Assembly (NCBI RefSeq): GCF_048403405.1
Contig: NZ_CP183129.1
Origin: Escherichia coli
GTDB taxonomy: Bacteria > Pseudomonadota > Gammaproteobacteria > Enterobacterales > Enterobacteriaceae
Reading direction: 5' to 3' (one strand)
Length of the DNA stretch: 64,000 nucleotides
Shown here: positions 56,456 through 63,250 of the stretch, one piece after another
How the letters are laid out: each line of letters starts with the position of its first letter
Position numbering within the stretch: the first letter of the stretch is position 1
The notes under the pieces: generated by a model
The model's database searches: none
The model's input: only the letters and a program-made list of their open reading frames with translations
What the model was told of the DNA's origin: nothing
Program-made: the position numbers and the translations under genes

Positions 56456-56888
56456 TAAACCCTGCACTTATCTGTTTAAAGCAATTCCGTGTTAGTTACA
56501 CCAGGCAAACATTAACTATGGCTAATGATTTATAGCCATATAAACCATTGGTCGCTCTTGACCTTTCCTGACACTTCCCTTGTTCGCAATAATATTCTGT
56601 TTAGTCGCTGTTTATAAATAACATGCATAATGAAATCGTAATGTTATTTAGCGACATAAAATGTCTTTGCAAATACTCTCTACAACAAGTGCTGCAATAA
56701 ACTTGTTGAGATTAGGTGTCCTTGTAATTTAAAGATATTATCGTTCTTCGTGAAGTGTAATAACCCTGGAAACTATATTCTCAGGGCAATATCCCATCAA
56801 GAATGATTCTTGTTTTATAAGCAATAACAGAATGACTTAATTGTTAACTTTCTTTATTCAGCTACTTAAATATAAATTTTGGAGAATT

Positions 56889-57452
56889 ATGAAACTCAAA
56901 CATGTCGGTATGATTGTCGTTTCTGTGTTGGCGATGTCGTCTGCTGCGGTAAGCGCAGCCGAGGGTGATGAATCAGTAACGACCACTGTTAATGGCGGTG
57001 TTATTCATTTTAAAGGTGAAGTGGTAAATGCCGCTTGTGCGATTGATTCAGAATCAATGAACCAAACGGTTGAGCTGGGTCAGGTCCGTTCTTCTCGTCT
57101 GGCTAAAGCGGGTGACCTCAGCTCCGCCGTTGGCTTCAATATCAAGCTGAATGATTGTGATACCAATGTTTCCAGTAATGCAGCTGTTGCATTCCTGGGT
57201 ACTACTGTCACCAGTAATGACGACACATTAGCGCTGCAGAGTTCAGCGGCAGGCTCTGCCCAAAATGTCGGTATTCAAATTTTGGACCGTACGGGGGAGG
57301 TATTAATACTTGATGGTGCCACTTTTAGCGCTAAAACTGACTTGATTGATGGCACGAATATATTGCCGTTCCAGGCTCGATATATTGCTCTCGGGCAGTC
57401 AGTAGCTGGTACTGCAAACGCAGATGCGACCTTCAAAGTTCAATATCTATAA
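56889..57452 (+). CDS. Type-1-like (F9/Fml) fimbrial major subunit
   Basis: 187 aa from [23 protein letters not shown]...; FimA-like pilin with conserved Cys pair and C-terminal donor-strand complementation region; GGAGA Shine-Dalgarno upstream. Confidence 0.85.
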
Positions 57453-57803
57453 TTCAATCTTAAGGTGGCTATACGTCATCTGAAATTGAAACAGGGTGTG
57501 TGTGGCATGGCTACGCACACCCTAGCAACTCAGAAATGTGAATCTCATTATTAATGAGGAGTGGTTTGTATTTGGAGCGCTATGAAAAATCACATAATAT
57601 CTAAACGATCAATAAACAACAGTAGTTAAATTTACTGTTATTTAAAAAATTTACTTTGTAGCAAGGTTTTCCTATTAAAAGAGAACCAACATTTATTTCA
57701 AACGCATTAAGTCTGGAAACCCGGCGACTCGCCAATGTATTAGCAACATTTACCGATTGTCTGATGTAACGGTTTCCCCGCTTATCCTCTTAACACATGG
57801 AGA

Positions 57804-58523
57804 ATGCATCAGATGCAAACTACGCGTACCCTCTACTCTATTTCCTTTATGGCGACAGTGTTACTTTTATTGCTCTTTGCTTGCCATAGCACCATTGCCA
57901 ACGCAGCTGTCGCACTGGGTGCGACGCGGGTAATTTATCCGGCAAACCAGAAACAGGTTTTATTGCCTGTCACGAATAATGATCCTGCCAGTGTCTATCT
58001 CATTCAGTCATGGATAGAAAATGCAGGTGACCAAAAAGACACCCAGTTTGTCATTACCCCACCGCTTTTTTCCATGCAAGGTAAAAAAGAGAATACGCTG
58101 CGGATAATCAACGCCACTAATCATCAGTTACCAGGCGACCGTGAAAGCCTGTTCTGGGTTAATGTTAAAGCTATTCCTGCTATGGAAAAAGATCAGAAGA
58201 ATGAGAATACATTACAGCTGGCAATTATTAGCCGCATAAAAATGTTTTATCGCCCCACGAACCTGGCAATGGCACCTGAAGAAGCGCCTGCAATGCTTCG
58301 GTTTCGTCGCAGCGGCAGCAAACTCACTCTTATTAATCCAACGCCCTACTTCATTACCGTAACAAATATGAAAGCAGGAAATAGCAATCTCCCAAACACC
58401 ATGGTGCCGCCAAAAGGTGAAGTATCGGTGGATATCCCGCATGCTGCAACCGGGGATATCAGTTTTCAGACGATCAATGATTACGGTGCATTAACTCCGC
58501 GTATTAAGGCAACCATGCAATAA
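57804..58523 (+). CDS. Periplasmic fimbrial chaperone (PapD/FimC family)
   Basis: 239 aa; signal peptide; chaperone motifs (RVIYPA, LFWVNVKAIP, RIKMFYRP, LINPTPYFITV). Confidence 0.85.
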   Translation: MHQMQTTRTLYSISFMATVLLLLLFACHSTIANAAVALGATRVIYPANQKQVLLPVTNNDPASVYLIQSWIENAGDQKDTQFVITPPLFSMQGKKENTLRIINATNHQLPGDRESLFWVNVKAIPAMEKDQKNENTLQLAIISRIKMFYRPTNLAMAPEEAPAMLRFRRSGSKLTLINPTPYFITVTNMKAGNSNLPNTMVPPKGEVSVDIPHAATGDISFQTINDYGALTPRIKATMQ

Positions 58524-58564
58524 GCCAGTGACCTAATTAATAATAAACTCAATCGGAATTAAAA

Positions 58565-61229: not shown

Positions 61230-61760
61230 ATGAAATACAATAACATTATTTTCCTCGGTTTATGTCTGGGGTTAACCACCTATTCTGCTTTATCTGCAGA
61301 TAGCGTTATTAAAATTAGCGGGCGCGTCCTCGATTATGGCTGCACAGTCTCATCGGATTCGCTTAATTTTACCGTAGATCTCCAAAAAAACAGTGCCAGA
61401 CAATTTCCAACGACCGGTAGCACAAGTCCAGCCGTCCCTTTTCAGATTACGTTAAGTGAATGCAGTAAAGGGACAACGGGGGTTCGGGTTGCATTTAACG
61501 GTATTGAGGATGCAGAAAATAATACTCTGTTGAAACTGGATGAAGGAAGCAATACGGCCTCCGGTTTGGGTATAGAAATACTGGACGGAAATATGCGTCC
61601 GGTGAAATTGAATGACCTTCATGCCGGGATGCAGTGGATCCCACTGGTACCAGAACAGAACAATATTTTGCCTTACTCCGCTCGTCTGAAGTCAACTCAG
61701 AAGTCCGTCAATCCGGGACTGGTGAGGGCTTCGGCAACCTTTACCCTTGAATTTCAATAA
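61230..61760 (+). CDS. ydeS: Fimbrial minor subunit (FimF-like)
   Basis: 176 aa; signal peptide and pilin fold; length and position match YdeS. Confidence 0.85.
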   Translation: MKYNNIIFLGLCLGLTTYSALSADSVIKISGRVLDYGCTVSSDSLNFTVDLQKNSARQFPTTGSTSPAVPFQITLSECSKGTTGVRVAFNGIEDAENNTLLKLDEGSNTASGLGIEILDGNMRPVKLNDLHAGMQWIPLVPEQNNILPYSARLKSTQKSVNPGLVRASATFTLEFQ

Positions 61761-61772
61761 TCAGAGTCAGAT

Positions 61773-62276
61773 ATGAAAAGACTTCACAAGAGGTTCCTGT
61801 TAGCTACGTTTTGCGCGTTATTCACAGCAACTCTCCAGGCCGCCGATGTCACTATCACTGTTAATGGTCGGGTAGTCGCTAAACCCTGCACTATTCAAAC
61901 CAAAGAAGCTAACGTTAATCTCGGGGATCTTTATACGCGCAATCTGCAACAACCTGGTTCTGCATCAGGCTGGCACAATATTACTTTGTCATTAACCGAT
62001 TGTCCGGTTGAAACAAGTGCAGTGACGGCAATCGTGACAGGTTCAACTGACAATACGGGTTATTACAAAAATGAAGGTACTGCCGAAAATATTCAGATAG
62101 AGCTAAGGGATGACCAGGATGCGACGTTAAAAAATGGCGATAGCAAAACGGTTATTGTTGATGAGATCACTCGTAATGCACAGTTTCCACTTAAGGCAAG
62201 AGCTATCACGGTGAATGGAAACGCAAGCCAGGGAACGATCGAGGCGCTAATCAATGTGATCTACACCTGGCAATAA
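61773..62276 (+). CDS. ydeR: Fimbrial minor subunit (FimG-like)
   Basis: 167 aa; signal peptide and pilin fold; length and position match YdeR. Confidence 0.85.
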   Translation: MKRLHKRFLLATFCALFTATLQAADVTITVNGRVVAKPCTIQTKEANVNLGDLYTRNLQQPGSASGWHNITLSLTDCPVETSAVTAIVTGSTDNTGYYKNEGTAENIQIELRDDQDATLKNGDSKTVIVDEITRNAQFPLKARAITVNGNASQGTIEALINVIYTWQ

Positions 62277-62335
62277 CGTCGATTCGATTTTCTTAGCCTC
62301 CTTTTTAAATCAATTTTTTAACCTTAGGATATATC

Positions 62336-63250
62336 ATGGGTAAAACAATAAGTATGAAGCTTCTGTTCGGTATTTATCTTCTATTAATGGCAGGCAAAGT
62401 TTTTGCCTTCAGTTGTAATGTCGATGGCGGGTCAAGTATTGGAGCAGGTACAACCTCTGTTTATGTTAATCTCGACCCTGTAATACAACCGGGCCAGAAT
62501 CTGGTTGTAGACTTGTCTCAGCACATAAGTTGCTGGAATGATTACGGCGGCTGGTACGACACTGATCATATAAACCTGGTACAAGGCTCAGCTTTCGCAG
62601 GCTCTCTACAGTCATATAAAGGCTCGCTGTACTGGAATAATGTGACCTACCCCTTCCCGTTGACGACAAATACTAATGTATTAGATATTGGTGATAAGAC
62701 ACCGATGCCATTACCGTTAAAACTCTATATTACCCCAGTCGGTGCGGCCGGTGGAGTTGTCATAAAAGCCGGGGAAGTTATTGCCCGTATTCATATGTAT
62801 AAAATTGCCACGTTAGGAAGCGGAAATCCGCGTAATTTTACGTGGAATATTATTTCAAATAACAGTGTTGTTATGCCAACAGGCGGCTGCACCGTTGATA
62901 GTCGTAATGTCAACGTGAATCTCCCGGACTTTCCTGGAAGCGCAGAAATACCCCTTGGCGTATATTGCTCAAGTGAACAAAAGCTCTCATTTTATCTTTC
63001 GGGTGCTACCACTGACAGTGCCAGACAAGTGTTTGCTAACACAGCACCAGATGCAACAAAAGCATCGGGAGTGGGTGTCTCTCTGATGCGTAATGGAAAA
63101 ATACTGGCTACGGGAGAAAACGTCTCCCTGGGGACAGTAAATAAAAGCAAAGTACCTCTGGGTTTAAGCGCAACCTATGGACAAACAGGAAACAAGGTTG
63201 CAGCCGGAACCGTCCAGTCAGTCATTGGTGTCACTTTTATCTATGAATAA
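62336..63250 (+). CDS. ydeQ: FimH-like two-domain fimbrial tip adhesin (F9/Fml adhesin)
   Basis: 304 aa; signal peptide ([18 protein letters not shown]); N-terminal lectin-like domain plus C-terminal pilin domain. Confidence 0.85.

Follow-up and report, generated by a model that had tools for sequence, protein, structure and literature searches.

A conserved GC-rich stem-loop behind the major pilin gene of the intact F9 (Fml/Yde) fimbrial operon of Escherichia coli

We analysed a stretch of 64,000 nucleotides of Escherichia coli DNA (contig NZ_CP183129.1, assembly GCF_048403405.1), referred to below as the window, and within it the interval from 56456 to 63250. This interval is an intact F9 (Fml/Yde) operon, a chaperone-usher fimbrial operon of the gamma-1 type. 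The list of open reading frames (ORFs), combined with Pfam, places six ORFs on the + strand in the interval, each of them uninterrupted. Their order is major pilin, chaperone, usher, a pair of minor subunits and FimH-like adhesin, without a fimI gene, and the pilin and chaperone genes are separated by a non-coding spacer carrying the stem-loop with which this report is mainly concerned. The features of the locus are as follows.

56201-56455, + strand: truncated AraC-type helix-turn-helix (HTH) gene remnant, equivalent to ECs2114/Z2199 and yneL-like; an 84-aa ORF with Pfam HTH_18 and HTH_AraC.
56602-56638, + strand: published f9 promoter, with -35 hexamer TAGTCG at 56602-56607, an 18-bp spacer, -10 hexamer CATAAT at 56626-56631 and transcription start site (TSS), a G, at 56638.
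56638-56888, + strand: AT-rich 5' untranslated region (5'UTR) of the pilin gene, 251 nt, GC 0.29-0.33; the published H-NS-bound region.
56889-57452, + strand: fmlA, the F9 major pilin, 187 aa; Pfam Fimbrial, 5.9e-31.
57453-57812, + strand: non-coding spacer from the pilin gene to the chaperone gene, 360 bp, in the place of fimI in related operons.
57493-57523, + strand: conserved GC-rich stem-loop, 40 nt past the pilin stop, 14 pairs, with no U-tract.
57813-58523, + strand: F9 periplasmic chaperone, 236 aa, from the RefSeq start; Pfam PapD_N and PapD_C.
58565-61216, + strand: F9 outer-membrane usher, full length, 883 aa; Pfam PapC_N, Usher (4e-200) and PapC_C.
61230-61760, + strand: ydeS, FimF-like minor subunit, 176 aa; Pfam Fimbrial, annotated ydeS/fimF.
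61773-62276, + strand: ydeR, FimG-like minor subunit, 167 aa; Pfam Fimbrial, annotated ydeR/fimG.
62336-63250, + strand: ydeQ/FmlH, two-domain tip adhesin, 304 aa; Pfam FimH_man-bind (6.3e-78) and Fimbrial.

Each of the six proteins is as long as its F9 counterpart in O157:H7, with 98-100% amino-acid identity: the pilin (O157 protein WP_001296758.1) and YdeS are 100% identical, the chaperone 98.7% and the usher 98.2%. Relationship to the type 1 system is more distant, at 64% identity between the pilin and K-12 FimA over 187 aligned positions (70% in the best 154-residue segment) and 60% between the chaperone and FimC. The lectin domain of FmlH matches PDB entry 6aow, "F9 pilus adhesin FmlH", with an E value of 1.7e-107. 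A first-pass annotation, made from the letters of the window, had described a complete F9/Fml operon with every gene intact, and the uninterrupted ORFs, their Pfam domains and the lengths shared with O157 bear this out. The same annotation had started the chaperone at 57804, where the ORF also opens; counted to there the spacer is 351 bp long, and with the RefSeq start it is 360 bp.

The six-gene organisation of F9 was described by Wurpel et al. in 2014, together with its location between an AraC-like remnant and ydeP-safA (PMC3966885). The RefSeq annotation of strains 4621, O157:H7 and K-12 DH1 gives the same position, with the AraC-type HTH remnant upstream and ydeP-safA downstream. The f9 TSS was mapped by 5'RACE to a G lying 251 nt before the pilin ATG, preceded by a -35 TAGTCG, 18 bp and a -10 CATAAT (PMC3966885), and these hexamers, their spacing and the start site are found base for base in the window. 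Because the published genes, promoter and TSS all map onto the window, the locus was already known, and this copy, judged by its sequence, is an ordinary intact allele of the system described before. It shares locus, gene order, promoter and neighbours (ydeP and the AraC-like remnant) with F9 of O157 and uropathogenic E. coli (UPEC), from which it shows no substantive difference; only the far upstream flank of the window strain differs. The F9, Fml or Yde fimbriae were reportedly treated by Low in 2006 and Ulett in 2007, and their genes are Z2200-Z2206 (ECs2113 etc.) in O157:H7 and c1931-c1936 in CFT073. The operon itself adds nothing new, as publications already cover where F9/Fml occurs, its promoter, its control by H-NS, its receptor and the structure of its adhesin.

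Across the interval the window is 100% identical at the DNA level to E. coli 4621, a clinical strain already sequenced. Among 5426 complete E. coli genomes, 3587 cover at least 80% of the operon interval in one place, and 5356 match it at least in part; an intact F9 operon is present in about two thirds of sequenced E. coli strains. In an earlier survey of 42 genomes 60% had the operon intact, those of phylogroup A carried it only in disrupted form, and Shigella was the one other genus in which it was detected (PMC3966885). K-12 (DH1) aligns to 56246-56708 and again from 59990 on, so that 56709-59989 is missing; what K-12 lacks runs from within the 5'UTR through the pilin gene, spacer and chaperone gene to 1.4 kb into the usher gene, and K-12 ydeT is the 3' remnant of the usher. 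The claim that K-12 keeps only ydeQRS and a truncated ydeT therefore holds, with usher homology beginning at 59990.

The spacer is distinguished from the genes on either side by its composition, with a GC content of 0.37, falling to about 0.25 at 57573-57650, against 0.44-0.47 in coding DNA. The first-pass annotation had placed a hairpin between the pilin and chaperone genes, and one is found at 57493-57523 with a folding energy of -24.8 kcal/mol. Its DNA consists of a 5' arm, AGGGTGTGTGTGGC, the loop ATG and a 3' arm, GCTACGCACACCCT; as RNA it reads AGGGUGUGUGUGGC-AUG-GCUACGCACACCCU and forms 14 pairs, G.U wobbles included. One arm had been given as CACACACCC and is really CGCACACCC, and the stem consequently contains G.U wobbles. 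None of 200 dinucleotide shuffles folds as well (z-score -4.15), and among the uninterrupted + strand stems of the 64-kb window only one is more stable. Folded as a whole, the 360-nt spacer gives a z-score of -4.2.

Conservation was examined in an alignment of 10 diverse E. coli strains, one lineage of which is just 81% identical in the spacer. Of the 29 hairpin columns only 1 is variable, whereas elsewhere in the spacer 88 of 335 are (Fisher p = 0.003), which makes the hairpin about 8-fold less variable than the remaining spacer. The invariant block reaches 17 nt further upstream, and over 57477-57522 variation is confined to 2 of 46 columns. A 45-nt segment around the hairpin occurs in exactly one copy in each of the 3590 genomes that have the spacer. 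In one genome, ecoli019, a deletion runs across both hairpin arms, with several other indels nearby, and may be an assembly error. The element was not described in the literature that we searched, using the hairpin sequence, the f9 locus tags, and reviews of Term-seq and small RNAs (sRNAs) in enterohaemorrhagic E. coli. The conserved hairpin is the only undescribed detail of the locus; it is real, yet of a kind familiar from fimbrial operons.

Nearly all related loci have the type 1-like order pilin, fimI, chaperone; F9 is the odd one in having a non-coding spacer at this place. Of 56 related gamma-fimbrial loci, 53 have a hairpin of -8 kcal/mol or better within 90 nt of the pilin stop, and a T-run stands behind it in just 7 of the 53. 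The median is -13 kcal/mol, and the F9 hairpin, at -24, exceeds all the others in stability; it is the positional equivalent of the stem-loops in the related operons.

In K-12, RefSeq annotates the sRNA fimR2 (b4838), 35 nt long, 10 nt past the fimA stop (positions 2175-2209 of the K-12 locus, L012). RNase E releases FimR2 from the fim transcript; the RNA depends on its hairpin for stability, and it binds CsrA by means of a GGA that the hairpin loop contains (Raad et al. 2022, PMC9723502). In the relatives, a FimR2-like element takes the form CAGGGAnGC ... GGGCC-AGGAn-GGCCC-GUUAUCC, with a stem that covaries. Nearly all of 44 aligned relatives carry a pair of GGA motifs, of which one is single-stranded or sits in a small loop and the other occupies the GGGCC/GGCCC hairpin loop. 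These elements lie about 60 nt past fimA-like stops in type 1-like operons (loci L014-L089) of Klebsiella, Raoultella, Citrobacter, Kluyvera, Enterobacter, Serratia, Yersinia, Pantoea, Erwinia and Providencia, and on an Aeromonas contig; FimR2 has no family in Rfam 15.

Like FimR2, the F9 element is a stem-loop that lacks a U-tract and lies no more than about 45 nt past the stop of a paralogous gamma-1 pilin gene. FimR2 is stabilised by its own hairpin, and its 3' end lies at the hairpin base. The two differ in that the F9 stem has 14 pairs (-24 kcal/mol) and the FimR2 stem 5, that F9 has no GGA motif anywhere in 57453-57530 and hence no predicted CsrA site, and that the F9 hairpin is followed by a 290-nt non-coding stretch, whereas in the type 1 operon fimI follows. 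Homology between the two was considered and rejected: they share the words ACGTCAT, CAGGG and CACCC, but a covariance model built from the 44 FimR2-like elements found no match in the F9 spacer at E<=10 with filters off, and the best local alignment of the F9 element to FimR2 was equalled by 474 of 2000 shuffles. On these comparisons the F9 hairpin is best regarded as a positional analogue of FimR2 and not as a demonstrable homologue.

We propose that the hairpin serves in the RNA as a stabiliser at the 3' end or as a processing barrier, which would give an excess of pilin mRNA, and we put the probability of this at about one half. The operon would be transcribed as one unit from the H-NS-repressed promoter (TSS at 56638), taking in fmlA and the chaperone, usher, ydeS, ydeR and ydeQ/FmlH genes. 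Ribosomes would come off at the pilin stop codon, leaving the 290 nt of untranslated, AU-rich spacer past the hairpin open to RNase E and possibly to Rho; AU-rich RNA is of the kind that RNase E attacks, and Rho can load on RNA that is not translated. The hairpin would then halt 3'-to-5' exonucleases, so that the pilin part would remain as a stable message of about 886 nt (56638-57523) while the distal chaperone-usher-adhesin part decayed faster. The expected outcome is pilin made in far larger amount than the assembly proteins.

Such a mechanism fits the logic of pap pilin mRNA as well as the biogenesis of FimR2. For pap, Nilsson and Uhlin reportedly described RNase E-dependent differential decay of the pilin mRNA in 1991, and Baga et al. 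are said to have dealt with a papA-proximal stem-loop and the pap transcript in 1988. The likeness to pap is one of concept only: there too the major pilin message outlives the rest of a polycistronic mRNA and pilin is made in large excess. The pap operon belongs to the pi clade, has no sequence relation to F9, and has its processing site 5' of papA.

Several observations weigh against a role for the hairpin as a stabiliser. Stems of at least 12 pairs are about equally frequent in shuffled sequence, so structure alone is no proof of function. The conservation statistic comes from 10 phylogenetically related sequences, for a region picked after the data had been seen. No compensatory base changes in the stem were found among the variants seen, and those variants (a G-to-T change in the N96 lineage and two changes in PK12) slightly weaken it. 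Rho loading is suggested only weakly by the composition of the spacer, with a C/G ratio of 1.1-1.4 and C making up just 12-27%.

The first-pass annotation had read the hairpin as an internal attenuator, that is, as a partial intrinsic (Rho-independent) terminator stopping some polymerases after the pilin gene and so setting stoichiometry. This we consider unlikely. A strong GC-rich stem-loop (14 pairs, -24.8 kcal/mol), as expected of an intrinsic terminator, does stand right behind the pilin gene, and some relatives that lack fimI (for example Proteus mirabilis locus L058, and loci L069 and L073) show a canonical hairpin with a T-run at this place. The 9 nt past the F9 stem, AGCAACTCA, hold a single T, however, which does not fit an intrinsic terminator, and a scan of the window for such terminators left the hairpin site unflagged. 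Plasmid work bears on the same question. The whole F9 cluster, placed behind PBAD upstream of the pilin gene in pF9 during work on CFT073, makes fimbriae (PMC3966885), as does the whole cluster behind PBAD in pBAD_loc8 from work on O157 (PMC7766294). Since fimbriae assemble when the sole added promoter lies upstream of the pilin gene, transcription must pass the hairpin. In a pst mutant of avian pathogenic E. coli, the f9 pilin, chaperone, ydeR and ydeQ genes all drop together. At most a fraction of transcription could stop at the hairpin, and a classical terminator is unlikely. Of the attenuator proposal, the termination step is not supported, and a skew of stoichiometry by a post-pilin stem-loop, an idea of long standing for chaperone-usher operons, stands as plausible; differential mRNA stability or processing is the more likely route to the ratio of pilin to assembly proteins.

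A second alternative is a trans-acting, 3'UTR-derived sRNA, a CsrA-independent counterpart of FimR2, set free from the transcript as the block 57477-57522, which consists of the hairpin and a single-stranded lead of 17 nt. The block shares its position with fimR2 and an alike architecture, with a single-stranded lead and a terminal hairpin ending in CACCC, and the low variability of its 46 columns and the known processing of FimR2 by RNase E, with a hairpin required for stability, would suit such an RNA. We nevertheless hold it to be improbable, as both GGA motifs are missing, the covariance model and the shuffle comparison gave nothing above background, the 3-nt loop exposes no obvious seed, and no sRNA has been annotated or reported at the F9 site. 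It is more doubtful still that this 46-nt block is a stable sRNA that might couple low-temperature F9 expression to other surface and motility programmes independently of CsrA.

Could the spacer instead act as DNA? It might form a second H-NS region that silences or roadblocks the operon together with the promoter region, the hairpin being incidental or a protein-binding palindrome. H-NS binds the f9 promoter region and represses f9, which is expressed at 20 C (PMC3966885), and the GC content of the spacer comes near that of the promoter and 5'UTR and is well under that of the coding DNA. The pattern of conservation runs the other way, with the GC-rich hairpin the most conserved part of the spacer and the AT-rich core the most variable. 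A scan with the H-NS consensus TCGATAAATT, allowing at most 2 mismatches, gave 105 matches in the window against 83.7 expected, a number near chance level and reached by 2 of 100 shuffles, and placed only two matches in the spacer, both with 2 mismatches. We regard an H-NS element here as quite improbable.

Equally hard to credit is that spacer and hairpin are functionless, the debris of a lost ancestral fimI with a chance palindrome on a short (TG)n run: fimI does occupy this place in related operons, the stem lacks covariation and long stems do arise in shuffles, but neither tblastn nor a profile search found a FimI remnant, the hairpin is about 8-fold less variable than other spacer columns, and a stem-loop stands at the same place in 53 of 56 relatives.

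The reading of the spacer as a decayed fimI was rejected because tblastn with K-12 FimI gave a best E value of 0.41 over 9 residues, and a profile hidden Markov model of 55 FimI proteins returned negative bit scores only on the spacer. Small ORFs (MKNHIISKRSINNSS at 57583 and others of at least 20 aa) were also rejected, since an A-run and other indels shift their frames between strains. Rfam 15, run over the region, gave nothing at E<=1 in the spacer; an OxyS-like Rfam match inside ydeQ, on the opposite strand, is attributable to chance (22 bits against a gathering score of 75).

If the hairpin sets the ratio of pilin to assembly proteins, or yields an sRNA, the post-transcriptional layer seen in pap and FimR2 would extend to a second gamma-1 fimbria of E. 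coli. It would also follow that the Enterobacterales-wide, CsrA-binding version has been replaced in F9 by a different and much stronger stem. The question is a matter for specialists in fimbrial regulation only.

Upstream of the operon, the AraC-type remnant is annotated as "incomplete, missing N-terminus" in the RefSeq records of strains 4621, O157 and DH1, and its O157 equivalent, ECs2114/Z2199, has been called a cryptic AraC-like coding sequence (Holmes et al. 2020, PMC7766294). No fimS-like invertible element had been noticed here, and this is corroborated. An inverted-repeat pair, 56316-56330 and 56631-56645 (15 nt, 93% complementary, 300 bp apart), does enclose the f9 -35 and -10 hexamers, with its left arm within the AraC-like remnant; its 11-nt perfect core is near chance expectation at such spacing. 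A query for the inverted junction was covered to at least 80% in 0 of 5426 genomes, and we rejected an invertible promoter switch, as the repeat pair is present yet no genome carries the inverted allele. Nor did the ORF list, Pfam or the RefSeq annotation contain a fimB/fimE-like tyrosine recombinase gene next to the operon. A separate, 10-nt perfect inverted repeat, 56615-56624 and 56641-56650 (TAAATAACAT ... ATGTTATTTA), brackets the -10 hexamer and the TSS, and could be an operator for some regulator.

Farther upstream, the window carries genes for an aldo/keto reductase, an ABM-type quinol monooxygenase and a carboxymuconolactone-decarboxylase (CMD)-family protein (54242-55786 and upstream of it). 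The same flank is occupied by hipBA in K-12, and by a truncated hipA and the ECSE_1600 autotransporter pseudogene in O157, and the difference fits the "variable 5' region" of Wurpel et al. 2014 (PMC3966885). The AT-rich DNA that separates the CMD-family gene from the AraC-like remnant holds a further hairpin, at 55886-55920 (CACAGTTATGAAC...GTTCATAACTGTG), palindromic over 13-14 bp and folding at -18 kcal/mol on both strands.

At the other end of the operon, past the ydeQ stop, an 8-nt GC-rich inverted repeat, 63294-63301 and 63342-63349 (GCGCGGAT ... ATCCGCGC), encloses a 40-nt interior, and a very AT-rich stretch (GC 0.27) lies between this repeat and ydeP. The terminator scan flagged no canonical + strand terminator at the operon end. 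Elsewhere in the window are two further uninterrupted stems of 15-17 pairs and -24 to -25.5 kcal/mol, at 27760-27797 (+ strand) and 35132-35165 (- strand).

Apart from one E. coli-like contig, a scan for the chaperone in one genome per species returned only fim-type paralogues of at most 70% identity, with no orthologous F9 spacer beyond E. coli. A contig, JARKOR010000214.1 (L013), from a metagenome-assembled genome labelled "Candidatus Nanosynbacter", encodes an F9 chaperone 99% identical to that of E. coli, and the F9 pilin as well; it almost certainly belongs to Escherichia and was put in the wrong bin. A divergent F9 lineage is represented by strains N96 (L004) and 2017-02-2CC (L011), with about 90% identity over the operon and 81% in the spacer. 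Its upstream flank holds an alpha/beta-hydrolase pseudogene instead of the AraC-like remnant, and this version of F9 may be a deep or introgressed allele.

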